A stretch of DNA of 31,867 bases from positions 1 to 31,867 of the IMG/VR virus record IMGVR_UViG_3300017991_000291; one strand, given 5' to 3'. The notes beneath the pieces are model-generated. The model did no database searches. It was not told the origin of the DNA and saw only the letters and a program-made list of their open reading frames with translations. The translations under genes were made by a program, and so were the position numbers. Shown here piece by piece: positions 2,035-31,867 of this stretch (the stretch's first letter is position 1; every line of letters starts with the position of its first letter). This DNA is from a virus (lineage: Duplodnaviria; Caudoviricetes).

Positions 2035-2129
2035 CGAAAAATATCCTGCAATTCACCAAAGATTGCAAATGTCTTAACATCGACAACGCCTCTTGATGTA
2101 TGAAGAAACAGAGACAACAACCTATTCAT
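2031..2129 (-). CDS. Short divergent unit, 32 aa (MNRLLSLFLHTSRGVVDVKTFAIFGELQDIFR)
   Basis: Manual translation; starts in the junction of 2122..2325 and ends in an ATGA overlap. Confidence 0.4.
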   Translation of the reverse strand: MNRLLSLFLHTSRGVVDVKTFAIFGELQDIFR

Positions 2130-2325
2130 AATAATCTTCTTTCAATTGCCGCCCGACTCGCAACTCGACTTGATTCCAAACTCGCTCCCAAACTTGCCAC
2201 CCGACTTGCCGCGCGACTTGGCTATCTACTTGCCACCCGACTTGCCGTCTGACTTGCAACCCGACTTGCTCCCAGACTCGGATTTGATTCTCAACTTGCC
2301 GCTCGGCTTGATCTTCACTCATCAT
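2122..2325 (-). CDS. QVxx repeat mini-protein, 67 aa
   Basis: QVENQIRVWEQVGLQVRRQVGWQV...QLKEDYYE. Confidence 0.75.
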   Translation of the reverse strand: MMSEDQAERQVENQIRVWEQVGLQVRRQVGWQVDSQVARQVGWQVWERVWNQVELRVGRQLKEDYYE

Positions 2326-2479
2326 AAAAATCTTCTTTCAATTGCTGCCCGACTTGCTCCCAGACTTGCCGCCAGACTTGCCGTCCGACTTGCAGCCAGA
2401 CTTGCTGCCAGACTTGCCGATCAACTTGTCGCATGACTTGCAGTCTGATTTGCCGCTCAACTTGATCTTCAATCGTCAT
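2315..2479 (-). CDS. QVxx repeat mini-protein, 54 aa (start revised to MTIEDQV)
   Basis: The track's N-terminal extension is the shadow frame of the upstream repeat; ends QQLKEDFYDE. Confidence 0.75.
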   Translation of the reverse strand: MTIEDQVERQIRLQVMRQVDRQVWQQVWLQVGRQVWRQVWEQVGQQLKEDFYDE

Positions 2480-2669
2480 GATAATCTTCTTCCAATTGCC
2501 ACCCGGTTTGCCAATAGACGTGATTCCAAACTCGCTCCCAAACTTGCCACCCGACTTGCCGATAGACTTGATCCCAGACTTGCCGATAGACTTGATCCCA
2601 GACTTGCCGTCTGACTTGCAACCCGACTCGCCACCGGATTTGCCGCTCAACTTGATCTTCAATCGTCAT
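2469..2669 (-). CDS. QVxx repeat mini-protein, 66 aa (MTIEDQVERQIRW...)
   Basis: Start in the conserved junction; ends WQLEEDYHDD. Confidence 0.75.
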   Translation of the reverse strand: MTIEDQVERQIRWRVGLQVRRQVWDQVYRQVWDQVYRQVGWQVWERVWNHVYWQTGWQLEEDYHDD

Positions 2670-2862
2670 AATAATCTTCATCCAATTGTTGTGTGGTTTG
2701 CAGATAAACTTGCTCCCAGGCGTGCGACCATACTTGCCTATAGACTTGCAACCAGATTTGCACCCAGACTTGCCGCTCGACTTGCCACATGATTTGCTGC
2801 TCGACGTGCTGCCCGACTCGCTGATATATTTGATGCTTGATTTGGTGATCTTCACTCATCAT
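2659..2862 (-). CDS. QVxx repeat mini-protein, 67 aa (MMSEDHQIKHQ...)
   Basis: Start in junction; ends QQLDEDYYDD. Confidence 0.75.
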   Translation of the reverse strand: MMSEDHQIKHQIYQRVGQHVEQQIMWQVERQVWVQIWLQVYRQVWSHAWEQVYLQTTQQLDEDYYDD

Positions 2863-2968
2863 AATAGTCTTCACCCAATTGCTCCCAAACCTGCCACCAA
2901 ACATGCCGCCAGACTTGATCCTCAACTTGCGGCCAAATTTGCTTATCTACTTGTTCTTTACTCATCAT
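2852..2968 (-). CDS. QVxx repeat mini-protein, 38 aa (MMSKEQVDKQ...)
   Basis: Start in junction; ends EQLGEDYYDE. Confidence 0.7.
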   Translation of the reverse strand: MMSKEQVDKQIWPQVEDQVWRHVWWQVWEQLGEDYYDE

Positions 2969-3140
2969 AATCATCTCTGACTTGCTGCCTCGCTTGCCGC
3001 CTGACTCGATCCTCAACTTGCCGCCAGACTTGCCACCAAACTTGCCGCCTGAATTGCCATTCGACTTGTTCCTCGACTTGCAGTCCGATTTGCTGCCTGA
3101 CTTGCCGCCTGACTCGATTATCAATCCTTTCGTTATGCAT
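2958..3140 (-). CDS. QVxx repeat mini-protein, 60 aa (MHNERIDNRVRRQV...)
   Basis: ATG at 3140; ends QQVRDDYDE. Confidence 0.75.
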   Translation of the reverse strand: MHNERIDNRVRRQVRQQIGLQVEEQVEWQFRRQVWWQVWRQVEDRVRRQARQQVRDDYDE

Positions 3141-3366
3141 CAAAATCTTCTTTCAGTTGTGGCTTGATGCGCGCCGCGATGCACCCCCTGACTTGGACCT
3201 CAACATCCCATTCAACACGCATCCTAAGTGGCAACCAGACTTGTTCTCTGATTTGTTTCCAATCATCTTGATCATAGATTTGATACCTGAGTTTATCCCA
3301 GACTTGCTGATTGACTTGCCGCCAGAATTGGTGTGTGACTTGTCGCTTAACTTGTTCGTTCATCAT
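3133..3366 (-). CDS. QVxx repeat mini-protein, 77 aa, first intact unit of array A
   Basis: MMNEQVKRQVTHQFWRQVNQQVWD...PQLKEDFDA. Confidence 0.75.
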   Translation of the reverse strand: MMNEQVKRQVTHQFWRQVNQQVWDKLRYQIYDQDDWKQIREQVWLPLRMRVEWDVEVQVRGCIAARIKPQLKEDFDA

Positions 3367-3400
3367 AATCTTATCCCAATTGCCATCTGCTACATGCCTA

Positions 3401-4717: not shown

Positions 4718-5020
4718 TCAACGAACCTGTACGCGCGTCACGATGGTCTGCTTCTCATCCCGCCATTCGCTGTGTTCCTTGATCGTGAACACCACATCCG
4801 CCGTATCACCGACTGCTAGACGACAAACGCCGAAGGTTTTGATGCAATTGCCGTTTTCGTCGCGGAGCGTTGTTATTACCCCACCGCCATAGCGACTTTC
4901 GTAGTGGTGCTTGTGTTCACACGTTACCCTGCTCGCCAAGCGCTTTCCAGGATAGCCAACCCAATTGGAATTCCGCTTGATCTCGGCAAGCTTGGCTTGC
5001 TTGGCAGCTTTCTCTTCTGC
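4718..5020 (-). pseudogene. 5'-truncated gene: C-terminal OB-fold-like domain of a common phage protein
   Basis: SNWVGYPGKR..RYG..LRDENGN..GDT..TIKEHSEWRDEKQTIVTR; sequence upstream of about 5020 is QV repeat in another frame, and the frame has no ATG. Confidence 0.55.
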
Positions 5021-5094
5021 CAATCGACTTGCTGCTCGCCTTGCCGCCAGACTTGCCAATCGATTTGCCGCCCGACTTGTTCTTCAATCTTCAT
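4924..5094 (-). pseudogene. Truncated QVxx unit (26 repeat residues) fused out of frame to the downstream gene
   Basis: MKIEEQVGRQIDWQVWRQGEQQVDWQ then non-repeat tail; first ~70 nt nearly identical to the start of 5084..5281. Confidence 0.65.
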
Positions 5095-5281
5095 AATCTT
5101 TTTCCAATTGCCACCGGACTTGCCACCTGACTTGCTGCCAGACTTGCCACCGTACTCGCCGCCAGACTTGCTGCCAGACTTTATTATTGACTTGCCACCT
5201 GACTTGCCGCACGACTTGCTGCTCGCCTTGCCGCCAGACTTGCCAATCGATTTGCCGCCTGATTTGCTCTTCAATCTTCAT
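5084..5281 (-). CDS. QVxx repeat mini-protein, 65 aa (array B)
   Basis: MKIEEQIRRQIDWQVWRQ...WQLEKDYED; 9 Trp and 15 Gln. Confidence 0.75.
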   Translation of the reverse strand: MKIEEQIRRQIDWQVWRQGEQQVVRQVRWQVNNKVWQQVWRRVRWQVWQQVRWQVRWQLEKDYED

Positions 5282-5298
5282 AATCGCTATCCAATTGC

Positions 5299-5375
5299 TG
5301 GTCGGGGCACGAGGATTTGAACCCCGGACCCCTTGCTCCCAAAGCAAGTGCTCTACCAAGCTGAGCTATACCCCG
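5299..5375 (-). tRNA. tRNA-Pro(TGG)
   Basis: CGGGGTATAGCTCAGCTTGGTAGAGCA-CTTGC-TTTGGGA-GCAAG-GGGTCCGGGGTTCAAATCCTCGTGCCCCGACCA; cloverleaf with encoded CCA. Confidence 0.96.
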
Positions 5376-5763: not shown

Positions 5764-5791
5764 TGTGTTTCCTTTCGCTGTTCGATGATCA

Positions 5792-5830
5792 TTTATCGCA
5801 CATCCAAAGGAGCATGTCAACAACTTTTTT
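5792..5830 (-). promoter_or_regulatory. Early (sigma70-type) promoter
   Basis: AAAAAAGTTG-TTGACA (5820-5815), 17 nt ending GATGTGC, GATAAA (5797-5792). Confidence 0.75.
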
Positions 5831-5912: not shown

Positions 5913-5988
5913 TGGTGCCGAGTGAGGGACTTGAACCCCCAACCACCTGATTACAAATCAGGTGCACTACCAGTTGTGCTAACTCGGC
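5913..5988 (-). tRNA. tRNA-Thr(TGT)
   Basis: GCCGAGT..CCTGA-TTTGTAA-TCAGG..GGTTCAAGTCC..ACTCGGCACCA. Confidence 0.95.
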
Positions 5989-7019
5989 TATATTGCCTTT
6001 GCCAAATTCAGCTTGGCTTTGACGCGGCTTTTAGCAACATGCAATGGTGTTTTGCCAGTCACCGCGCCTGTTTCAAGTATCGACAAAACGCGATGCTTGA
6101 TGTTGTCAATCTCGCGCATATGATCTTGTTTCGTGACGTAGTTGGCCGCTGCAATCACACCACCAGCGTTGGCAATGAAGTCTGGAATATACAAAATATC
6201 CTTTGTTTTCAATGCGTTAGCCAAGTCGTCATCTGCAAGCTGATTGTTTGCAATTCCACAAATTGCCTTGCATTGCAACTGTGCAATAACACCACTTGTC
6301 AGAATTCCACCAAGCGCACACGGAGCCAAAATATCGCACTCCGTCGAAAGAATTTCACTTGAGTGAACAACCGTTGCGTTTAATTCTGTCGCCATTGTCT
6401 GTCCGAGGTTTGGCATGTCGTCATCAATCGTTATATCGGAGATGAACAATTGTCCAACACCGACTTTGTGAAGAAGTCTCGCCAACGCATAGCCGGTTTT
6501 GCCAACCCCTTGAATTGCAACGCTTTTTTGCGTCAAATCCCAACCGTTAAACTCCGCAACGGCGAGAATTGCGTTGAATGCACCGCGTGCTGTGCTTTCC
6601 AAAATTGGCGTTGCTACGCCACAAACATATTCACTCGTTCGAGACACGGCACGCATATCGCCCAGGGTTGAGCCAAAATCAACGGCAGTGTAATATTGCC
6701 CAGCCAACTGATTAACATGTTCACCGAAACACTCGAAAAGTTCTTTACGATCTTTTCCATCCCAAGTGTTTGAAAGTATTACACTTTTCCCACCCCCCAA
6801 CGGAAGATCAGCAGCAGCACATTTGTATGTCATCCCATGTGACAAACGCAGTACGTCTCGCAGAGCATCATTTGGATTGTCATATTTTGCAAAGCGACAA
6901 CCACCAACCGCTGGTCCTAGCGTCGTATCATGAATGGCAATCATGCCACGTAGCCGACCACCCAACCCATTGAACATGAATACTTTTTCATGATTTGCAT
7001 AACTACTGTGTGTGAACAT
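5988..7019 (-). CDS. Leu/Phe/Val-type amino acid dehydrogenase (Glu/Leu/Phe/Val family)
   Basis: IAIHDTTLGPAVGGCR, LRLSHGMTYK, LGGGKSVI, QGVGKTG, PCALGG, GIANNQL, PDFIANAGG. Confidence 0.93.
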   Translation of the reverse strand: MFTHSSYANHEKVFMFNGLGGRLRGMIAIHDTTLGPAVGGCRFAKYDNPNDALRDVLRLSHGMTYKCAAADLPLGGGKSVILSNTWDGKDRKELFECFGEHVNQLAGQYYTAVDFGSTLGDMRAVSRTSEYVCGVATPILESTARGAFNAILAVAEFNGWDLTQKSVAIQGVGKTGYALARLLHKVGVGQLFISDITIDDDMPNLGQTMATELNATVVHSSEILSTECDILAPCALGGILTSGVIAQLQCKAICGIANNQLADDDLANALKTKDILYIPDFIANAGGVIAAANYVTKQDHMREIDNIKHRVLSILETGAVTGKTPLHVAKSRVKAKLNLAKAI

Positions 7020-7324: not shown

Positions 7325-7587
7325 TTTGAATCCATGTTATATGTTAGGCCAATAATTTTGTTGCCGTCTGTTTCATACAGCGATGGTGCACCAAACATGC
7401 TCGTCAACAACTCGATTTGCTCTGCTGACATTTCATTCATCAACTCCTGGCCTTCACACCAGAACATCAACGAAATGCCATCGTCATCAACGCTTATACC
7501 ATTTTCCTTGACGATTTGCAAGTCATCCAGGTGCTTCGTGGTGAAATCCTCGATGTATTTTCGTTTGGAACTTGTGCGACGGGGCAT
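7321..7587 (-). CDS. Hypothetical protein, 88 aa
   Basis: AGGAG RBS; overlaps the speD 3' end by 65 nt. Confidence 0.55.
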   Translation of the reverse strand: MPRRTSSKRKYIEDFTTKHLDDLQIVKENGISVDDDGISLMFWCEGQELMNEMSAEQIELLTSMFGAPSLYETDGNKIIGLTYNMDSK

Positions 7588-7933
7588 GGCCTTCTTCTCC
7601 TAGATATTTAACGATATTTTGGATGCATTCAAAAGCATCACACGATCCGCACATATAGACATCCAGAGTGGCCAAATTGTATTCTGGCCATGTATGGACG
7701 GATGCATGGCTTTCTGACAAGACTAGCATTCCTGTGAACCCACCAAAATCAGAATTCTCGCCGGGGAAATCGTTAACCGATCTATACAGAATGGTTGCGC
7801 CTTCTGCGAGAACAGCACGTTCCATGATATTCATCAGAATTGCTGAGTTGTTGGAAAAACACACTTGGTTCAATTCTGGTTCCCACCGCAAATCCAACAT
7901 TGCGTGTTTTCCGACATATGGTATCGCTTTCAT
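7523..7933 (-). CDS. speD: S-adenosylmethionine decarboxylase proenzyme (class 1B)
   Basis: GKH..LDL, GFTGMLVLSE/SHASVHTWPE, DVYMCG, C-terminal RG. Confidence 0.92.
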   Translation of the reverse strand: MKAIPYVGKHAMLDLRWEPELNQVCFSNNSAILMNIMERAVLAEGATILYRSVNDFPGENSDFGGFTGMLVLSESHASVHTWPEYNLATLDVYMCGSCDAFECIQNIVKYLGEEGHAPSHKFQTKIHRGFHHEAPG

Positions 7934-24792: not shown

Positions 24793-25475
24793 CACACAAC
24801 ATCCTTCCACATAACATCAATTCCACCCAGACTGGTTTCTAGAAATGGATACAGCGATAGAAGTATTGCTTTACACTCCTTGGCAATTAGCCGGTGTTCT
24901 TTTTGTGTTTCTGGTCCTTCTCTCAATGCAACGTATGTGATCCATGATCTGAGGTTTCCATTCATGTACATACGGCTCATGACCATTCCTTCTGGAAGAA
25001 CTGCTCTGGCTTGTTCTTTGGCTATTCCATTTTCAATGGCCCATTTGTATGCCAGTTTACATTCGTGCATTATCTGCTCTTGTTTCAAAACCCAGGCACG
25101 ATGCAATTCTTCATCATTCACTTCAATGCTATTCTGTCGATTTTTGCTATCTTGAAGTCTTGATTCTCGAACGCTATAACCAAGTTCATTTGGGTCAGCA
25201 TAGCGTTGTGAGAATTCCTGAAAACTGAATGATCTGTGCCGCAAAATTTGTCTCGCAATATCTCGCGTTGTATTGATTTCCAAAATCACATTGGCCATTT
25301 CGAAAACTGACCAGTGTTTATGTTTGATGCAATAGTTGAGAAGTTTTTCTGCTGTCTGATTATTATTCTGATTGGAAGGATTGGAAACTCTGGCACAATA
25401 TGCCATCAATTCATGCGGTGGAGATTCATAATCATTTTCTGCCTGTGTGTGTGCAATCAACTTTACTGTATCCAT
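24792..25475 (-). CDS. thyX: Flavin-dependent thymidylate synthase
   Basis: RQILRHRSFSFQEFSQRY, AKEQARAVLP, TQKEHR. Confidence 0.97.
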   Translation of the reverse strand: MDTVKLIAHTQAENDYESPPHELMAYCARVSNPSNQNNNQTAEKLLNYCIKHKHWSVFEMANVILEINTTRDIARQILRHRSFSFQEFSQRYADPNELGYSVRESRLQDSKNRQNSIEVNDEELHRAWVLKQEQIMHECKLAYKWAIENGIAKEQARAVLPEGMVMSRMYMNGNLRSWITYVALREGPETQKEHRLIAKECKAILLSLYPFLETSLGGIDVMWKDVV

Positions 25476-25496
25476 GAATAGCTCCTTATTTACTAA

Positions 25497-25709
25497 TCAC
25501 ACTTCTTTAATGTGTACCTCATACACTGGTATTTCACTAAAAACAGTGTTTTTTCTAACGATATCTAGAATTTCCCATTGTCTATTTTGACCCAAAGTGG
25601 AAAATTTTTTCACATCCCCGACAGTGAAATTTTCAAACCATCGAAAATGTGTCAACAGTTGCCCGTTCTCTATGAAATGAACGTAACCATAAAAACGATC
25701 TTCGATCAC
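25497..25709 (-). CDS. Hypothetical protein, about 70 aa
   Basis: GTGA overlap with the last array-C unit. Confidence 0.55.
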   Translation of the reverse strand: MIEDRFYGYVHFIENGQLLTHFRWFENFTVGDVKKFSTLGQNRQWEILDIVRKNTVFSEIPVYEVHIKEV

Positions 25710-25888
25710 CGACAATTTTCATCCCATCCATCACAATCCTCCATAACTTGCCATAAGATTTGCTGATTGACTTGCCGCCAGATTTGCCGCCAGACTTGCC
25801 ACACAACTTGATCATATACTTGCTCCAAAACTTTCTGATCGACTTGCTGATCGATTTGAACCAAGAATGATTTTACGTTATACATCAT
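25706..25888 (-). CDS. QVxx repeat mini-protein
   Basis: QIDQQVDQKVLEQVYDQVVWQVWRQIWRQV. Confidence 0.7.
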   Translation of the reverse strand: MMYNVKSFLVQIDQQVDQKVLEQVYDQVVWQVWRQIWRQVNQQILWQVMEDCDGWDENCR

Positions 25889-26054
25889 AATCATCCATGA
25901 TTTGCCAGAAGACTTGCTGATTGGCTTGCTTATTGACTTGCCGCCAGACTTTCTGATTAACTTCCTGATCTACTTTCAGATTGACTAACCAAGCAACTTT
26001 ATTCCAGACTTGATGTGCGCCGCATCCGAATGTTTTATATATCAATTCCATCAT
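25878..26054 (-). CDS. QVxx repeat mini-protein
   Basis: QEVNQKVWRQVNKQANQQVFWQIMDDYDV. Confidence 0.7.
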   Translation of the reverse strand: MMELIYKTFGCGAHQVWNKVAWLVNLKVDQEVNQKVWRQVNKQANQQVFWQIMDDYDV

Positions 26055-26226
26055 AATCATCCATAGCTTGCCGCTTGGCTTTCAACCAAACTCGATCCCC
26101 AACTTGCCACCATACTTGCTGATCAATTTGCCGCCAGACTTGCTGATCGAATTTCCGCCTGACTTGCCGCAAGACTTTCTCTCTGACTTGCCATCCGATT
26201 TGTATATCAATTCTCGCGTTATCCAT
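26035..26226 (-). CDS. QVxx repeat mini-protein (MDNARIDIQIGWQV...)
   Basis: Start in junction. Confidence 0.7.
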   Translation of the reverse strand: MDNARIDIQIGWQVREKVLRQVRRKFDQQVWRQIDQQVWWQVGDRVWLKAKRQAMDDYDGIDI

Positions 26227-26413
26227 CAAAATCCTTCCAAAGTTGAAAATAGCCTTGCTGCCAGCGTTGCCGATTAACTTTCTGCCAGAGTTGCCACACA
26301 ACTTGATCATATACTTGCCCCAAGACTTTCTGACGAACGTTTTCCAGACATTGCGCATCGATAGAAGAAAACCCTTGCTGCCCGACTTGATCAACGATTT
26401 TTATTTTATTCAT
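26219..26413 (-). CDS. QVxx repeat mini-protein (MNKIKIVDQV...)
   Basis: Shares QKVL.QVYDQVVWQ with 25706..25888. Confidence 0.7.
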   Translation of the reverse strand: MNKIKIVDQVGQQGFSSIDAQCLENVRQKVLGQVYDQVVWQLWQKVNRQRWQQGYFQLWKDFDG

Positions 26414-26591
26414 CAAAATCATCCACCAATTGACGCCAATATTGCCACTGCTTTATTTCTTCTATTCGTCTCCTACCCTTGCTTTGTATTCTCACAAACA
26501 CTTCCATGTAAATATTACGAGATACATGACACGAAACATTCAATCTCGACGCATCAATATGATGCAATGCAGAATCCTTAGCACCGACCAT
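26406..26591 (-). CDS. Divergent family member, ends YWRQLVDDFDE
   Basis: Junction retained, repeat decayed. Confidence 0.55.
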   Translation of the reverse strand: MVGAKDSALHHIDASRLNVSCHVSRNIYMEVFVRIQSKGRRRIEEIKQWQYWRQLVDDFDE

Positions 26592-26610
26592 AACCAAACA
26601 CCCATCTGAT

Positions 26611-26644
26611 AAAAAAAACCGGCGTAGGTTTCCCCACGCCGGTT
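26611..26644 (-). terminator. Rho-independent terminator closing the DUF6745 operon
   Basis: AACCGGCGTGGG-GAAA-CCTACGCCGG-TTTTTTTT. Confidence 0.92.
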
Positions 26645-26673
26645 ACTCCTACCAACTCAAACAATACGCACTA

Positions 26674-27015
26674 CTAGTCCTGAACGCGACGATAGCCTTC
26701 TGGCGTGTACTCGCGCTGACGGATGATTCTGTAGTCACCCGGCTCAAGGAGCAGAGATTCGTGTGTATCATAGTCGCGAAGGTGAGTAAGCTCACTCGCG
26801 CGATGAAGCGTCAGAAACGCTTCAAGTTCGTTGTCCGGGTTTTCGAACATGCTTGCATCATTACGATCCAGCACGTGGTGGTGCCCGGTTTCAGAGTGCG
26901 TGACAATCAGGTGGTTCCCTTCCGGCGCAACCTCTTTCAGATTGCTTCGGTCGAAGCTGTCCACACGCATGATCATCACATCACCCTGAGCAGCGATTTT
27001 CTTGAAAGTTCTCAT
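26674..27015 (-). CDS. His-rich conserved partner of DUF6745 proteins
   Basis: QGDV..HSETGHHH..LTH...DTH..L.PG.Y.I.RQREY.P...RRV.D; GAGGA RBS, ATG 1 nt after the upstream stop. Confidence 0.8.
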   Translation of the reverse strand: MRTFKKIAAQGDVMIMRVDSFDRSNLKEVAPEGNHLIVTHSETGHHHVLDRNDASMFENPDNELEAFLTLHRASELTHLRDYDTHESLLLEPGDYRIIRQREYTPEGYRRVQD

Positions 27016-27016
27016 A

Positions 27017-27907
27017 TTACGTCCTCACTTCTGGTTTGACAAACTCGTTGACATCGATACCCCATGTGCTCGCTTGCGCTTCCATGGCAGTATTGACATC
27101 AGGCGGCACGGGAATGGCAAAAAATCGTCCAGTCCCACACTTCACACGCAAGAACCTTTCGGTTCCAACGTCAGGGAGATCGACTTCAAGCAGAGTGCCG
27201 ATCTCAGGATCATCATCCTGATGGATGACCTTGGCATCAAGTTGGTTGAGAACGCTTTCCCACCCAACGATTTCAGAAAAACACCGGCGCTGTTCGATGT
27301 CTTCCCACGTCAACGCGATACGCGGATCGAGTTGGCTTTTCGGCGTCATCAGCCATTCACGCGGTACACGCGTGCCATGCCAACAACAAACAGTCCAACC
27401 ATCGCGATAACGCAGCGAAGGTCCTTCTTCACTGTGTTGCCGCCCTTCGTCATCGAGTTTGATGAATTCGGGACGATTGACAATCACAGCAACATCCTCT
27501 TCCCACCACACGTTGTCACAGGCAGAACAGAGTTCTTCAAAAACCTTGAAGTTTGCGAGCGTTTCGTTCTCCCAATTGAGAACGTCACGGAAGAAGGTGA
27601 TATAAGCGCACGAAGAAACTTGCGAAGAACCGCAATACAGCTTCGAAATCCCATCGTAACATTCTTGTTTTGTTGGCTCACGGCCAAGCTGATGTTCCAG
27701 GCCCATCTTGATTGCTGCAAACGGGGAGTCTGCAAAAAGCACAGTTGGGCGCGGACGCTCGATGATGTCGTAAATTTTCAGAACACGCTCTTTTGCGTAC
27801 TCGAAATCCACGGGTTCAGTGGAAAGACCAATCTTCACCCATTTCTCAGTCCAACCAGGAATTTGTGCTTCCTGTTCAGGTGTCATGCTCTCGATTTTCT
27901 CAGGCAT
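27017..27907 (-). CDS. DUF6745-type protein lacking the internal QV/QL repeat
   Basis: TPEQEA..KW..IGLSTEP.D..DSP; RP....DDEGRQHSEEGP..Y.DGW...WHG.RVP; EQRR; PVPP...TA.EA.A.TWG. Family recognised from memory of these motifs. Confidence 0.8.
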   Translation of the reverse strand: MPEKIESMTPEQEAQIPGWTEKWVKIGLSTEPVDFEYAKERVLKIYDIIERPRPTVLFADSPFAAIKMGLEHQLGREPTKQECYDGISKLYCGSSQVSSCAYITFFRDVLNWENETLANFKVFEELCSACDNVWWEEDVAVIVNRPEFIKLDDEGRQHSEEGPSLRYRDGWTVCCWHGTRVPREWLMTPKSQLDPRIALTWEDIEQRRCFSEIVGWESVLNQLDAKVIHQDDDPEIGTLLEVDLPDVGTERFLRVKCGTGRFFAIPVPPDVNTAMEAQASTWGIDVNEFVKPEVRT

Positions 27908-27941
27908 ATAAAAATCCTATTGTTTCTGCCGTCACTCAAAT

Positions 27942-27979
27942 TGTCTACCACAAGTTCTATTTACTGTCAACAACCTTTT
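27942..27979 (-). promoter_or_regulatory. Early promoter of the DUF6745 operon
   Basis: AAAAGGTTG-TTGACA (27970-27965), 17 nt ending TGTGG, TAGACA (27947-27942). Confidence 0.7.
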
Positions 27980-28055
27980 ACATTTTTCTGCTCCCTCTGT
28001 TCAATGTCTTAACCTCTTCAAGATGAACACACCCTAGCAAAGTTGTGTGGTGTCG

Positions 28056-28223
28056 TCAAGCACCTTTTTTAAAATCTTCCCTCGCCTGACTTATGAAGTG
28101 TTTTTCGAAATTCATATTAGCGTTTATAGCTTTCCTGAGTTGCCATCTGACTGCTATGTTGATACGTACGGCTTGCAATGCAGACAGGAATCTAATCGAC
28201 CCAACTTTGCTACATATTGTCAT
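28056..28223 (-). CDS. Divergent terminal unit, 55 aa (MTICSKV...QAREDFKKGA)
   Basis: Start in junction; family-like end. Confidence 0.55.
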   Translation of the reverse strand: MTICSKVGSIRFLSALQAVRINIAVRWQLRKAINANMNFEKHFISQAREDFKKGA

Positions 28224-28410
28224 GATAATCATCCATAACTTGCTTCCTGGCATCCCGCCAGACTTGCTCATCGACTTGTCGATAGACTTGCCACCAGACT
28301 TGCCAATTGATATGACGTTCGACATACAGCCAGAATTGATCATTGAGTTGATCCCAGAGTTGCTGATCAATTTTCCGCCCGACTTGATTATTCATTTGCT
28401 CTTCATTCAT
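28210..28410 (-). CDS. QVxx repeat mini-protein (MNEEQMNNQV...)
   Basis: Ends QVMDDYHDNM; paralog of 28578..28772. Confidence 0.72.
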   Translation of the reverse strand: MNEEQMNNQVGRKIDQQLWDQLNDQFWLYVERHINWQVWWQVYRQVDEQVWRDARKQVMDDYHDNM

Positions 28411-28585
28411 GATAATCATCCATAACTTGCTGCTTAGTTTGCCACCCAACACGCAAATAAACATCCTGCACCTGTTCCCATTCTACTATATTCCATACTT
28501 GCCGCTTGAGTTGTATACTTAATTGGTTTCTGGATGTCTCATAGACTTGCTCATAGATTCGATAGTGGATTCGGTGTTTAATCAT
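28403..28585 (-). CDS. QVxx repeat mini-protein (MIKHRIHY...)
   Basis: Ends QQVMDDYHE. Confidence 0.7.
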   Translation of the reverse strand: MIKHRIHYRIYEQVYETSRNQLSIQLKRQVWNIVEWEQVQDVYLRVGWQTKQQVMDDYHE

Positions 28586-28772
28586 GATAATCATCCATAA
28601 CTTGATGAACAACTTTCAAATTGCATTGCTCTTCGACTTGCCGATAGACTTGCCGCCAGACTTGCACTTGGGCTTGTTGCCATAGTTGCTGCCCGATTTG
28701 CCGATTGATATGATGTCCGACATACAGCCAGAATTGCTCATAAACCGGATCGTAGATTTGCTCTTCATTCAT
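28578..28772 (-). CDS. QVxx repeat mini-protein (MNEEQIYDPV...)
   Basis: Ends HQVMDDYHD. Confidence 0.72.
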   Translation of the reverse strand: MNEEQIYDPVYEQFWLYVGHHINRQIGQQLWQQAQVQVWRQVYRQVEEQCNLKVVHQVMDDYHD

Positions 28773-28944
28773 GATAATCCTCTTTCAATTGATCCACTTC
28801 TTGCCGCCCGACATGCCACCAAACACGCCCATCCGCTCTCCACCAGACAAATTCTCTAACAATATATCGAATATCTTTATCAATACACTTCCAGACTTTT
28901 GCGTTGAACACAACCAAAAATGTTCTGTCGATATCAAGATGCAT
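28765..28944 (-). CDS. Family member, 59 aa (MHLDIDRTFL...DQLKEDYHE), below the track cutoff
   Basis: Manual translation; paralog of 29100..29288. Confidence 0.7.
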   Translation of the reverse strand: MHLDIDRTFLVVFNAKVWKCIDKDIRYIVREFVWWRADGRVWWHVGRQEVDQLKEDYHE

Positions 28945-29110
28945 GAAAATCTTCTCTCGCTTGTTGACGCGCTTGTTTGTCGGCTTGTAGTCTCGTGTTT
29001 TCTAAAATGTCCCACCAAACCGGCACATAAACTGCGCTATTAATATTGTCCACCATCATATTCCATATTGGAGTTTCAACTTTCTTCTCAACTTCAATAT
29101 CAATCCTCAT
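28934..29110 (-). CDS. Family member, 58 aa (MRIDIEVEKKV...QQAREDFHAS), below the track cutoff
   Basis: Manual translation. Confidence 0.65.
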   Translation of the reverse strand: MRIDIEVEKKVETPIWNMMVDNINSAVYVPVWWDILENTRLQADKQARQQAREDFHAS

Positions 29111-29288
29111 GATAATCCTCTTTCAATTGATCCACTTCATGCCGCCCAACTTGCCGCCACCAAACACGTCCATCCGCTCTCAACCAGACAACTTCGCCAA
29201 CAAGATATCGAATATCTCTATCAATATACTCCCAGGTTTTTGCGCATGCATTCGCCCAAAACGTTTTGTTTATATCAGTAATCTTCAT
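29100..29288 (-). CDS. Family member, 62 aa (MKITDINKTF...)
   Basis: Ends DQLKEDYHED. Confidence 0.7.
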   Translation of the reverse strand: MKITDINKTFWANACAKTWEYIDRDIRYLVGEVVWLRADGRVWWRQVGRHEVDQLKEDYHED

Positions 29289-29463
29289 GATAATCGTCTT
29301 TCAGTTGCCCATCAACTTGCCACTTGAGTTGCATCCAGACTTGATCCCAAACTTGACCCCAGACTTGTTGATTGACTTGCCGCAAGGTCTGATCCCCGAC
29401 GCACCGATCTACGCACATCATTACCTGCCACCAAACTTGCTCATTGCATTGTCGTTCATTCAT
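29275..29463 (-). CDS. QVxx repeat mini-protein (MNERQCNEQV...)
   Basis: Ends GQLKDDYHEDY. Confidence 0.72.
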   Translation of the reverse strand: MNERQCNEQVWWQVMMCVDRCVGDQTLRQVNQQVWGQVWDQVWMQLKWQVDGQLKDDYHEDY

Positions 29464-29623
29464 GATAATCATCTTTCAGTTGCGACCAATTTTGACACTT
29501 GACTTGCCACCAGACTTCATTTCTGACATGCCACCAAACGAACTGTTTGACTTGATGCTCGATTTTCAGGATTGATCCAAAGACTTGCCAATCAATCTGT
29601 TGTTCGATCCGTTGTTCATTCAT
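29456..29623 (-). CDS. QVxx repeat mini-protein, 55 aa (MNEQRIEQQIDWQV...), below the track cutoff
   Basis: Manual translation; ends QNWSQLKDDYHE. Confidence 0.7.
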   Translation of the reverse strand: MNEQRIEQQIDWQVFGSILKIEHQVKQFVWWHVRNEVWWQVKCQNWSQLKDDYHE

Positions 29624-29810
29624 GATAATCATCTTTCAGTTGCGACCAATTTTGATCCCAAACTTGCTGATCGTTTTGATCCCAGAATTTCCAATTGATT
29701 TGCTCCAAGATTTGCATCCTAATTTGCATTCTGGTTTGATCCGAACTTTGATTCCAGCTTTGGTATTCGATTTGATCCCTGACTTGCCGCCAGACTTGAT
29801 GCCTAATCAC
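29616..29810 (-). CDS. QVxx repeat mini-protein (GTG 29810 or ATG 29819 start)
   Basis: Ends QNWSQLKDDYHE. Confidence 0.7.
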   Translation of the reverse strand: MIRHQVWRQVRDQIEYQSWNQSSDQTRMQIRMQILEQINWKFWDQNDQQVWDQNWSQLKDDYHE

Positions 29811-29991
29811 GCCAATCATCCTTCAATTGCATCTCTGCACCCCCTCCCTGTTGCGCCCACAATCGATCATCAAGCTTCTGTTTGATTTGCTGCCAGAGTT
29901 GCCATTCAACATGCCGCACGGTTCGAGAAAAAATTTCCATAAGAACTTGCGTCCCAACTTGCTTAATTTGCCAACATTGATCTTCATGCAT
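29803..29991 (-). CDS. QVxx repeat mini-protein (MHEDQCWQI...)
   Basis: Ends MQLKDDWRD. Confidence 0.68.
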   Translation of the reverse strand: MHEDQCWQIKQVGTQVLMEIFSRTVRHVEWQLWQQIKQKLDDRLWAQQGGGAEMQLKDDWRD

Positions 29992-30169
29992 CAAAAGCAC
30001 CTCTCAATTGCTGCCTAACGTGAAACCTGAATTGCAGCCAGACTTGCTCCCCGGCTTGATCCCACACTTGCTTCTCGACTTGCTCTTCGACTTGTCGCTC
30101 GACGTACTGCTCGACTTCTCGCACAACTTGCCACATAATTATCTGCTGAACTAGATGATCAATTTTCAT
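29984..30169 (-). CDS. QVxx repeat mini-protein (MKIDHLVQQ...)
   Basis: Ends QQLRGAFDA. Confidence 0.72.
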   Translation of the reverse strand: MKIDHLVQQIIMWQVVREVEQYVERQVEEQVEKQVWDQAGEQVWLQFRFHVRQQLRGAFDA

Positions 30170-30365
30170 CAAAATCACCTCTCAATTGCTGTCTAGCGTG
30201 AAACCTGACTTGTCGATCAACTTGCATCCATACTTGCTTCTCGACTTGATCCCAAACTTGACACCTGACTTGCTCTTCGGTTTGATCCCACGCTTGTCGC
30301 TTGATTTGCTGCAAGATTCGTCGATCAATTCGAAACCAAACATTTTCAATTCTTTTGCCGTTCAT
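30159..30365 (-). CDS. QVxx repeat mini-protein (MNGKRIENVW...), mosaic
   Basis: Ends QQLRGDFDEN. Confidence 0.75.
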   Translation of the reverse strand: MNGKRIENVWFRIDRRILQQIKRQAWDQTEEQVRCQVWDQVEKQVWMQVDRQVRFHARQQLRGDFDEN

Positions 30366-30561
30366 TGCAATCATACCTCAATTGCCTCAAAACGTGCCGC
30401 CAGATTTGCCGATCAACTTGATCCCATACTTGCTTCTCGACTTGATCCCAAACTTGACACCTGACTTGCTCTTCGACTTGCTGCCAGATTTGCGTCCTGC
30501 CTTCTCGGTAGATTTGTTGATCAATTCGAAACCAAACATTTTCAATTCTTTTGCCGTTCAT
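30346..30561 (-). CDS. QVxx repeat mini-protein (MNGKRIENVW...)
   Basis: Ends RQLRYDCNERQKN. Confidence 0.75.
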   Translation of the reverse strand: MNGKRIENVWFRIDQQIYREGRTQIWQQVEEQVRCQVWDQVEKQVWDQVDRQIWRHVLRQLRYDCNERQKN

Positions 30562-30757
30562 TGCAATCATACCTCAATTGCCTCAAAACGTGCCGCCAGA
30601 TTTGCCGATCAGCTTGCCGCCAGACTTGATCTTCGGCTTGATCCCATACTTGCTTCTCGACTTGCTCTTCGGCTTGATCCCATACTTGCGTCCTGACTTG
30701 CTGCCAGATTTGTAGATCAACTTGCAACCAAATATTTTCAATTCTTTTACTGTTCAT
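30542..30757 (-). CDS. QVxx repeat mini-protein (MNSKRIENIW...)
   Basis: Ends RQLRYDCNERQKN. Confidence 0.75.
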   Translation of the reverse strand: MNSKRIENIWLQVDLQIWQQVRTQVWDQAEEQVEKQVWDQAEDQVWRQADRQIWRHVLRQLRYDCNERQKN

Positions 30758-30950
30758 CAAAATCACCTCTCAATTGCTCTTTAAAATGAAACCGATGCTG
30801 ATAGACTTGATCCCATACTTGATTCTCGACTTGATCCCATACTTGATCCCAGGATTGCTCTTCGGTTTGATCCCACGCTTGTCGCTTGATTTGCTGCAAG
30901 ATTTGTAAATCAACTTGCAACCAAACGTCTTCAACTCTTTCGTTATTCAT
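30747..30950 (-). CDS. QVxx repeat mini-protein (MNNERVEDVW...)
   Basis: Ends EQLRGDFDEQ. Confidence 0.75.
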   Translation of the reverse strand: MNNERVEDVWLQVDLQILQQIKRQAWDQTEEQSWDQVWDQVENQVWDQVYQHRFHFKEQLRGDFDEQ

Positions 30951-31101
30951 TGCAATCTTCCATCAATTGCCCCTGTATTTGCCGTACAGTTTGATGTCCT
31001 ATTCTCTTGCTGGTTTTCCGCCTGACTTTACCGCCAATTTGCCGTCCTATTTGGCCCCAGACTTGCCACGTGAATGTCCGCCAGATATTCATTTCAATCA
31101 T
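30943..31101 (-). CDS. QVxx repeat mini-protein, 52 aa (MIEMNIWRTFTWQVWGQI...), below the track cutoff
   Basis: Manual translation; ends GQLMEDCNE. Confidence 0.68.
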   Translation of the reverse strand: MIEMNIWRTFTWQVWGQIGRQIGGKVRRKTSKRIGHQTVRQIQGQLMEDCNE

Positions 31102-31291
31102 AATGATCTTCCTTCAATTGCATCCTGGCCTTTCGCCAAACGCTAAACGTGACAGCCCACTCAACTTCCCATCTAACAGACCTCCCGACCAACAATCGTG
31201 TGCTTACAGAACAACAATCAATACATTCCTTATGCGTTGCCCATCTGACATGTTCATCCAACAATGCATCGACCATTGCAAATTTCCTCAT
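31094..31291 (-). CDS. Divergent first unit of array D, 65 aa
   Basis: ATGA overlap with the MazG-like gene; ends MQLKEDHYD. Confidence 0.62.
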   Translation of the reverse strand: MRKFAMVDALLDEHVRWATHKECIDCCSVSTRLLVGRSVRWEVEWAVTFSVWRKARMQLKEDHYD

Positions 31292-31659
31292 TTCACGATG
31301 TCTGTCAAATCGGCTGGTTTGTACAGATCGCCCTTTAGGATTTTACCGTCTTCACGATAAGAAGGCTTTCCGTCTGCATTCAATTTGCTCATGTTTGACT
31401 TGTGTACCGCATCGAAACACTCGTCGATTTCTATTCCATATGCAGCAGCAGTTCCATAGACCACATACAACAGATCAGTCAATTCCTTTGCTATATTGAC
31501 TGGCTCATTTTCAAGCATGGCTTCTTCTACTTCGTTCAATTCTTCTTCAATGAGACGCAATCGCAAGTCCAATTGTTCCATTGTCAACTCAGTATATTTT
31601 TCCGGCGCACCATGCCCAAACGCCAGCATGAATTCTCGAACTTTCTGAAAATTGGTCAT
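31288..31659 (-). CDS. MazG-like / PRA-PH NTP pyrophosphohydrolase
   Basis: LIEEELNE..KELTDLLYVVYG..VHKSNMSK..REDGKILKG. Confidence 0.9.
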   Translation of the reverse strand: MTNFQKVREFMLAFGHGAPEKYTELTMEQLDLRLRLIEEELNEVEEAMLENEPVNIAKELTDLLYVVYGTAAAYGIEIDECFDAVHKSNMSKLNADGKPSYREDGKILKGDLYKPADLTDIVK

Positions 31660-31671
31660 TACGTTTTCCTT

Positions 31672-31867
31672 TCAAGCTATTTTCTTCCACAACCCAAACT
31701 CTGACTCAGCTTCCAAACCCTTATATGTGTGTTGTGATAACACAGATTCAATATCAGCAACGCCATTCAATACCATGTCATTGACATCCTTCTGTTCAAT
31801 TCTTCTTGGCCAAATAACAACAGAGAATTCAGCCTTGATTGCCGCATACAAAGAACGCACAATGTCG
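31672..31867 (-). CDS. DNA primase (T4 gp61-like), C-terminal end only
   Basis: VVIWP....KDVNDMVL..TYKGLEA...F..WKK; the gene begins beyond the window edge. Confidence 0.8.
   Translation of the reverse strand, partial: DIVRSLYAAIKAEFSVVIWPRRIEQKDVNDMVLNGVADIESVLSQHTYKGLEAESEFGLWKKIA

Follow-up and report, generated by a model that had tools for sequence, protein, structure and literature searches.

A homogenised stop-start overlap links tetrapeptide-repeat mini-genes of a tailed phage and likely couples their translation

Integron cassette arrays involve the integrase IntI, the attI and attC sites, and circular intermediates that carry a single cassette. A different arrangement is found in the PeSL cassettes of the T4-type phages RB49 and phi1, where a repeated short element between small non-essential genes enables their shuffling by recombination, without mention of a recombinase in the abstract (PMC2839356). 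At overlapping genes, translation can be coupled through a stop/start overlap with a Shine-Dalgarno motif within the upstream gene (PMC6728339), and a range of -8 to +10 nt has been taken as predictive of reinitiation, -8 being the shortest overlap possible in the phase discussed below (PMC10666635). Among repeat proteins, a comparable described case is gp54 of mycobacteriophage Tweety (gp57 in Che8, gp51 in PMC), which is encoded by a 12-bp repeat whose first six bases are fixed and whose positions 9 and 12 vary least (PMC2884959); its counter-defence against Phrann gp29/gp30 is tuned by the number of repeats (PMC9262239). Here we describe an array of overlapping mini-genes, and the short junction at which each overlaps the next, in a 31,867-nt stretch of viral DNA (IMG/VR record IMGVR_UViG_3300017991_000291), referred to throughout as the window. 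The array and its junctions are as follows.

28056..31291, minus strand: main array; 18 overlapping open reading frames (ORFs) of ~50-70 aa, each next one in the +1 frame, with 17 junctions
31094..31120, minus strand: junction 1; 8-nt overlap; next start 31101
30943..30969, minus strand: junction 2; 8-nt overlap; next start 30950
30747..30776, minus strand: junction 3; 11-nt overlap; next start 30757; strong GAGGTG site
30542..30580, minus strand: junction 4; 20-nt overlap; next start 30561; within a 93-nt exact repeat common to junction 5
30346..30384, minus strand: junction 5; 20-nt overlap; next start 30365
30159..30188, minus strand: junction 6; 11-nt overlap; next start 30169
29984..30010, minus strand: junction 7; 8-nt overlap; next start 29991
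29803..29829, minus strand: junction 8; 8-nt overlap; GTG start 29810
29616..29642, minus strand: junction 9; 8-nt overlap; next start 29623; weak ribosome-binding site; within a 42-nt exact repeat common to junction 10
29456..29482, minus strand: junction 10; 8-nt overlap; next start 29463; weak ribosome-binding site
29275..29307, minus strand: junction 11; 14-nt overlap; next start 29288
29100..29129, minus strand: junction 12; 11-nt overlap; next start 29110
28934..28963, minus strand: junction 13; 11-nt overlap; next start 28944
28765..28791, minus strand: junction 14; 8-nt overlap; next start 28772; sole full match to the 27-nt consensus
28578..28604, minus strand: junction 15; 8-nt overlap; next start 28585
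28403..28429, minus strand: junction 16; 8-nt overlap; next start 28410
28210..28242, minus strand: junction 17; 14-nt overlap; next start 28223

Tetrad repeats of the form Q-(V/I/L)-x-x make up most of the ORFs; strong divergence is seen in five of the 18, namely those at the two ends of the array and three in the middle (29100-29288, 28934-29110 and 28765-28944). The initial annotation of this DNA had described a stop/start junction that chains the units, with overlaps of 8, 11, 14 or 20 nt and each next start in the +1 frame, and both statements were borne out at all 17 junctions. Overlaps of 8 nt (nine junctions), 11 nt (four), 14 nt (two) and 20 nt (two) were found, all of them 2 mod 3, which is the same fact as the +1 frame and not an independent one. 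The start codons of the units were chosen by the analyst and other in-frame starts exist, which leaves the phase unaffected. When a 23-nt form of the junction was searched for with up to 3 mismatches, 12 matches were found in the window against 0.00 expected (100 shuffles), far above chance. At every junction the next start lies exactly 19 nt past the C of a CAA codon, and the length of the overlap varies through the position of the stop alone; the CAA, an A at -13, a G at -7, a T at -5 and the TG of the start are invariant. The junction codons specify Gln (17 junctions), then Leu (13), Val (3) or Ala (1), then Lys, Arg or Met (17) and, at the fifth codon, Asp (16 of 17). The proposed consensus, encoding QL(K/R/M)(E/D)DY(H/D)(E/D) followed by a stop, is real and looser than was stated: its 27 nt are matched in full at one junction in 17, the others agreeing at 18-25 letters, and the supposed Tyr codon encodes Tyr at eight. 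With a mean pairwise identity of 0.75, the junction is the most conserved part of the unit (tails 0.45, heads 0.35).

The junction had also been said to contain a stretch resembling a ribosome-binding site. Pairing to the anti-Shine-Dalgarno sequence had a median of -5.7 kcal/mol at the junctions, the same level as at 26 other genes of the window (-5.75), and was stronger than at random positions (-2.9, p=0.0004) and inside the units (-3.0). Pairing is weak (-1.6 to -2.3 kcal/mol) at the three junctions that precede the starts at 29623, 29463 and 29288. At 13 of the 17 junctions the Leu codon and the base that follows it form a stop in the downstream frame just ahead of the ribosome-binding site. 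A Lys-Ser-Gly-rich +1 frame that runs across the units was considered as a second protein and rejected as a shadow frame, as it contains 28 stops where synonymous resampling gave 33.5+/-4.6 and 32.6+/-4.7. Since the +1 frame is no more open than expected, dual coding is confined to the 8-20 overlapped bases.

From its sequence, the junction likely couples the translation of successive units. As in termination-reinitiation pairs, a Shine-Dalgarno-like site lies in the upstream coding sequence; unlike the known coupled pairs, there are 17 such overlaps in a row between paralogues, and they share one homogenised sequence. On the reading that we favour, the junction consists of the final Q-(V/L)-x-x repeat of a unit and an acidic cap with a second use as ribosome-binding site and start, and homogenisation has made it uniform inside each array. 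The final repeat (QL-x-E/D) would be followed by a short acidic cap whose GAR/GAT codons would serve a second time as the ribosome-binding site, with the start ~19 nt on, and a ribosome stopping at one unit would restart on the next. Given co-transcription and such reinitiation, one transcript would yield a mixed panel of ~60-aa helices. Taken alone, the junction has nothing unusual about it: stop, ribosome-binding site and start overlap as in other coupled genes, and here this arrangement is repeated and homogenised. Conservation of synonymous positions had been proposed as a check on a special role for the junction. These positions are indeed fixed there, with CAA at 17 of 17 and GAT, as the fifth codon, at 16 of 16; however, unit bodies are nearly as fixed (CAA 0.84 and GAT 0.93, against 0.51 and 0.70 in other genes), which indicates that homogenisation covers the whole unit.

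The same layout was found in other phages. Among 182 unique junctions from related loci, 94 are in the +1 phase, 85 in the -1 phase (79 of these the classic 4-nt ATGA) and 3 in frame; counted by sequence cluster, 31 of 54 are +1 and 23 are -1, and the phase is near-constant within each array. The choice between +1 and -1 is set by one base, the commonest spacing between last tetrad and start being 19 nt in +1 junctions (41/94) and 20 nt in -1 junctions (45/85). An acidic residue lies three or four codons past the Gln of the last tetrad in 42 of 64 locus representatives. The consensus of the window recurs in 5 of the 182 junctions, all from locus L054. The junction is thus conserved as DNA within an array only, and its layout is common across phages. 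When the exact junction pattern was searched for in viral contigs, four loci were returned, one from a near-identical strain and three that were dropped as chance matches in unrelated phages without repeat units; a longer junction pattern gave none. The array of L054 and L148 has ~17 units and the junction type nearest that of the window, beside a putative capsid-like gene; these loci may come from the same phage as the window or a closely related one.

The unit itself is a run of 12-nt repeats in which CAAGTC is followed by six variable bases, read as Q-(V/I)-x-x. Across 2977 tetrads, entropy at positions 7, 8, 10 and 11 was 1.78, 1.51, 1.69 and 1.53, as against 1.10 and 1.02 at positions 9 and 12; variation of the repeat avoids third codon positions, and the 125 tetrads of the window show the same direction more weakly. 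Homology searches with the units gave little: no Pfam family was assigned to the five array ORFs scanned and no PHROG to the 11 mini-proteins scanned, a profile of 28 units matched five proteins, all from the window, and blastn of the array against annotated phages returned no match. The ESM Atlas gave unnamed viral clusters only (0.90-0.91), searches of the PDB by sequence and with Foldseek found nothing significant, and a viral library returned DUF6745-like proteins only. DUF6745 is also the family encoded beside the array, in a gene that lies, together with a small partner gene, between the main array and a second one.

27017..27907, minus strand: DUF6745 gene; 296 aa; Pfam PF20530 at 80.3 bits (cut-off 27); no internal tetrad repeat
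26674..27015, minus strand: partner gene; 113 aa; phrog_27831; the usual neighbour of DUF6745 and the arrays
25706..26597, minus strand: second array; one diverged ORF and four repeat units; same junction, with overlaps of 8, 8, 17 and 8 nt

The same tetrad repeat occurs inside 32 of 120 listed DUF6745 homologues (loose pattern, at least three matches), and alignment places the point of insertion in these fused forms at the position where the DUF6745 protein of the window has none; the mini-proteins correspond to this insert, which lies outside the Pfam profile. DUF6745 proteins with an internal tract (PF20530; phrog_31813), such as P0033, P0050, P0092 and A0A7T8 of Microcystis phage LMM01, share with the window units a Q-V-x-x repeat that is helical in models, and have the same small partner gene alongside. 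In the window, by contrast, the repeat is detached into ~30 overlapping mini-genes and the DUF6745 gene is devoid of it. A DNA pattern for the repeat, blind to repeat-less DUF6745 genes without an array, matched 136 viral loci. Of 61 viral contigs with wide flanks, 40 carry an array junction, and within these a DUF6745 match was found in the locus in 18 and the partner in 17. All 18 array-adjacent DUF6745 matches, several of which are strains of one phage, are without an internal repeat, and all eight contigs with a repeat-bearing DUF6745 are without an array junction. A complete phage of 368,758 nt (L145-L146; G004 337,000-350,000) carries a single +1-phase array, of at least 45 units, on both sides of its one DUF6745 gene. 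In L021, a single open frame at 1319-2401 matches both the partner and DUF6745 and is a possible fusion of the two. No description of DUF6745 function or of the array system was found in the literature searched, from which subscription journals were mostly absent.

The units resemble Tweety gp54 in having a 12-bp repeat with six fixed bases and variation at first and second codon positions. They differ from it in that the Tweety repeat reads Ala-Ala-x-x and lies in one protein between unique ends, whereas those of the window are free mini-genes made of repeat and cap only; a repeat between unique N- and C-terminal regions is also what the fused DUF6745 homologues have. Tweety gp54 is an analogue of the units and not a homologue.

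Structure prediction links the junction to DUF6745. One unit was modelled as a single helix with a mean pLDDT of 90, and in a fused DUF6745 homologue the tract is helical in the model at low confidence. A complex model of the unit at 30747-30950 with the DUF6745 protein of the window scored 0.81, as against 0.01 for the best of three controls. Of 157 solved complexes 116 attain this mark, as do 2 of 215 mismatched pairs, and these numbers hold only roughly when a complex is given its own alignments. The runs agree in at least 97% of contacts and the pLDDT of the partner is at least 79. The constant Gln and Val positions of the unit lie in the predicted interface, and the junction-encoded residues Q59-L60-R61 are among the contacts of lowest error; they adjoin DUF6745 residues 62-66 and 84-87, the site at which the repeat is inserted in the fused forms. 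A solved relative that could explain the score by memory was not found by PDB sequence search or Foldseek. The model supports binding of the mini-proteins to DUF6745 as a prediction, not as proof.

On balance, it seems reasonably probable that the junction is the overlapped end and start of repeat mini-genes, likely coupling their translation, and that the mini-proteins, as the model predicts, clip onto the repeat-less DUF6745 as interchangeable variable modules. Any crossover between two in-frame CAAGTC repeats would preserve frame, cap and overlap, so that the whole unit, and not the junction alone, would be the substrate of recombination. General phage recombination, presumably, or slippage would add, delete and chimerise units at the breakpoints described below and would keep the junctions of an array alike. 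By analogy with Tweety gp54, the most likely use of the panel would be against host defences. A more far-reaching version, which we put forward tentatively and hold to be doubtful, is that the arrays form a recombination-fed display library in trans, in which dozens of translationally chained helices of 60 residues, with Gln-Val fixed on one face and hypervariable residues on the other, would load singly onto one DUF6745 scaffold. A phage would thereby have a repertoire of specificities for counter-defence, and each 12-base repeat would allow in-frame reshuffling of it with no need of a dedicated recombinase or reverse transcriptase. What is less ordinary than the junction is that a repeat built elsewhere into one unstudied protein here appears as ~30 small, seemingly coupled genes beside a repeat-less copy of it, and at least 45 in the complete jumbo phage. 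If the mini-proteins are interchangeable modules of one scaffold, this would be a widespread and undescribed route to a diverse repertoire of phage proteins. The arrays also give a direct handle on DUF6745, a family without a paper in the literature searched. The analysis contributes a breakpoint map, a survey of phase and the link between junction-encoded residues and the predicted interface.

The foremost alternative takes the junction to be a dedicated plug-in site, at which whole units move as cassettes by exchange between junctions, in an integron-like manner without a recombinase. We consider it improbable, mainly on the evidence of where units are gained and lost. Most of the region 25500-31400 is present in ten DNA runs from sediment and seawater metagenomes, with no RNA run among those listed, and one natural variant lacks the following stretch.

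29335..29789, no strand assigned: deleted stretch in a natural variant; 455 nt; two junctions lost, in frame; 11-nt microhomology in the repeat body

The joint of this deletion was found in run X6 and the same form in contig L143, which are possibly one sample and not two; runs X1, X3 and X5 have contig breaks at 29345 and 29790 with about half the depth between them, and runs X7 and X8 are unbroken through the stretch. This polymorphism shows the array changing within present populations. Between L013 and L033, a 146-nt change joined a repeat in mid-body to the one that ends the following unit (8-nt microhomology), and a 182-nt change involved a 59-nt tract across a junction, which fits junction-to-junction exchange. 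A 220-nt change between L007 and L045, at a contig edge, involved a 77-nt tract in the body and was counted though it is possibly an assembly collapse. One of these four changes in unit number is thus compatible with exchange between junctions and three are not, and all five internal length changes (12, 24, 24 and 36 nt, and a 63-for-147-nt swap) fall in the repeat body. In 21 other loci, 39 of 248 ends of exact tracts (16%) lie in junctions, which is about the share of the unit that the junction occupies (~15%). Linkage between flanks was present across the junction, and absent within genes, in L043 (r=0.54) and L081 (r=0.45), two loci that share part of a contig; the same test, weak and mixed overall, gave nothing significant in four other loci. 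The fixity of CAA and GAT in unit bodies, close to that of the junctions, and the variation of the junction sequence between phages also argue against a dedicated site. The mapping did not take in L052/L105, a complex replacement; L021/L045 and L045/L095, in which the offset changes beyond the array; three pairs that are diverged (L012/L041, L015/L065, L041/L124); L054/L078, which differ by a shift of 1 nt; or pairs in which an event already counted recurs. Candidate joints at 25950-28635, 26144-29766, 30852-30804, 25810-29768 and 29800-25756 were rejected as cross-mapping between repeats, having short sides or inserted letters.

Some observations do speak for movement at junctions. The junctions are the longest sequence common to the diverged units of the window. 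Two whole-gene paralogue pairs are split by an unrelated unit, one of them with both borders in junctions. For the paralogues starting at 28772 and 28410 a single 362-nt offset holds, and its borders fall at positions -7 and +4 relative to successive junctions. Junctions also precede first units that lack an upstream unit, at 5300, after a tRNA-Pro gene, and at 3382, in the following features.

2122..3382, minus strand: third array; seven repeat units; overlaps of 8, 8, 8, 11, 11 and 11 nt; degenerate junction ahead of the first unit
4924..5300, minus strand: unit-and-a-half; a complete unit followed by the beginning of another, immediately past the CCA of tRNA-Pro

The chained units of the third array span 3363-2122 and have the same junction as the main array. 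The unit-and-a-half opens with a junction without an upstream unit and breaks off in a unit body, where it is fused to an unrelated gene represented by its 3' half. Where an array is old and diverged, as the main one is, the junction would be the longest homology left and, sometimes, the site of crossover. Junctions are crossover sites at times, most plausibly in old arrays with little other homology, and are not privileged. Of the plug-in connector envisaged in the initial annotation, the gain and loss of units with frame and overlap kept is retained, as are some old events that end at junctions; a role of the junction as the dedicated crossover site is not supported by the breakpoints mapped between relatives, three of the four changes in unit number being of another kind.

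The resemblance to an integron cassette array, also suggested at the outset, extends to a row of small, single-gene units in the same orientation whose number varies between strains. It goes no further, as the units here are overlapping paralogues without a fixed crossover point, and neither an integrase nor an attC-type hairpin was detected. A tyrosine recombinase (PF00589) was found in none of five records, including the complete 368,758-nt phage and the record of the window, itself ~18% complete, whereas a control was detected in 14 of 14 cases. Five of the 17 junctions were folded (coding strand only) and gave z-scores of -0.39 to +1.55, no better than shuffles, and inverted repeats of at least 20 nt were absent from the junctions. 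The accompanying remark that no recombinase or attC palindrome was visible thus agrees with what was found. The complete array-bearing phage carries a RecA-family gene. As regards exchange at repeated elements of the PeSL type, some unit borders lie at junctions and most lie in the repeat body. PeSLs consist of an intergenic promoter and stem-loop, whereas the junction here has coding sequence on either side, and most breaks fall elsewhere. Promoter-like sites in 25400-31867 number 11 against 10.7 expected, and no minus-strand terminator lies inside the array. On sequence grounds, the system appears to be one of variable tetrapeptide-repeat phage proteins split into a coupled library, the junction being a homogenised coupling overlap and not an integron-like site.

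The reading of the junction as a coupling overlap between modules for DUF6745 has several results to contend with. Nine of the 17 overlaps are at -8, and the other eight (-11 to -20) exceed the -8 to +10 nt range taken as predictive of reinitiation in PMC10666635; most junctions also have a ribosome-binding site of normal strength, so that many units could start independently. A DUF6745 match was missing from the fetched flank in 22 of the 40 array contigs, and the complex score was obtained for one unit, in a setting in which the halves of split genes tend to pass such models. The counter-defence role is argued from a single analogue, Tweety gp54, which was not among the 11 records matched by tblastn with a repeat-bearing DUF6745 (E<=0.01) in a collection in which the presence of the Tweety record was not checked. 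As regards recombination, 8 of 30 tract ends in the window lie in junctions (27% vs 16%; the ends are not independent), and head-tail similarity within genes of the window (r=0.17, p=0.053) is not below that across junctions (r=0.07, p=0.24), which leans towards exchange at junctions; indels in repeats can also be assembly errors.

It is decidedly unlikely that the arrays are mostly a by-product, in which a self-expanding 12-nt repeat carries start and stop along with it and the peptides have neither partner nor role. Such an origin would account for the dominance of the CAA GTC dicodon (2628 of 3180 Gln-Val pairs in related loci, a figure partly forced by the search pattern), for the many indels of slippage size and for strains that lose two units at once. 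Against it stand the 54 clusters in which frames stay open, overlaps stay tight and each array keeps to one phase, the avoidance of third codon positions by variation, the place of the arrays beside DUF6745 and its partner, and the passing score of the complex model, whose predicted interface includes the constant Q-V positions. We give still less credence to the units being silent donor cassettes, copied into the DUF6745 gene to restore or vary an internal repeat: the repeat is the same and the genes are adjacent, but the 18 array-adjacent DUF6745 matches offer no acceptor tract, and starts, stops and ribosome-binding sites would be needless in a donor.

A programmed +1 frameshift site has a conserved shift-prone codon beside the stop. 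The proposal, made in the initial annotation, that +1 frameshifting at junctions fuses units into long repeat proteins is formally possible, in that at each of the 17 junctions a ribosome shifting by +1 would enter the following unit in frame, and long repeats exist inside DUF6745, but is very improbable, as there is no conserved slippery site (the codon before the stop takes eight forms in 17 junctions, GAA, GAT, AAT, CAG, GCA, TAC, TCT and ATG, and the +1 codon at the last sense codon nearly always alters the first base), the position of the stop moves, 13 of the 17 junctions have a downstream-frame stop before the start, and 23 of 54 clusters of homologous arrays have the opposite phase.

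Beyond the coupling overlap itself, strain comparisons bear on the tRNA region. The unit fragment at 4924..5300 is absent from the tRNA-Pro site of strain G002. When window 4718-5300 was set against L149 17500-19830, G002 was found to have ~2.3 kb of other small genes after tRNA-Pro instead. The half unit after tRNA-Pro is fused, over 9 nt of shared sequence, to the middle of a gene whose G002 version is longer. At L149 15974-16177, the same strain has a lone diverged unit-like ORF after tRNA-Met, with its own ribosome-binding site, QLEDDF near its end and no counterpart in the window. A promoter-like element (TTGAC, then GCGATAAA) is repeated ahead of variable small genes in the tRNA region, at ~5785-5830 of the window and at ~16165, 16965, 18475 and 18778 of L149, and recalls PeSL-type cassettes.

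The window is a fragment of a large tailed phage, ~18% complete by CheckV. Its genes include class II ribonucleotide reductase, Thy1, PhoH, T4-type RNase H, RNA ligase and three tRNAs, and from this content we infer a T4-like phage; it also codes for a Glu/Leu/Phe/Val dehydrogenase and an S-adenosylmethionine decarboxylase (5988-7019 and 7523-7933). L142, which is identical to the window, was excluded from all counts. L001 aligns with the window without gaps in the array region, and 20 of the 21 differences between the two over 10.8 kb cluster at 31615-31852, which suggests a recombined tract. At base 30106 the window differs from all eight runs compared and from L001, and its letter there may be a rare allele or an error. 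Within the DUF6745 gene, a second allele of 27419-27713 with 14 substitutions was found in runs X9 and X10; run X8 has 10 of those substitutions, and the flanks are identical.

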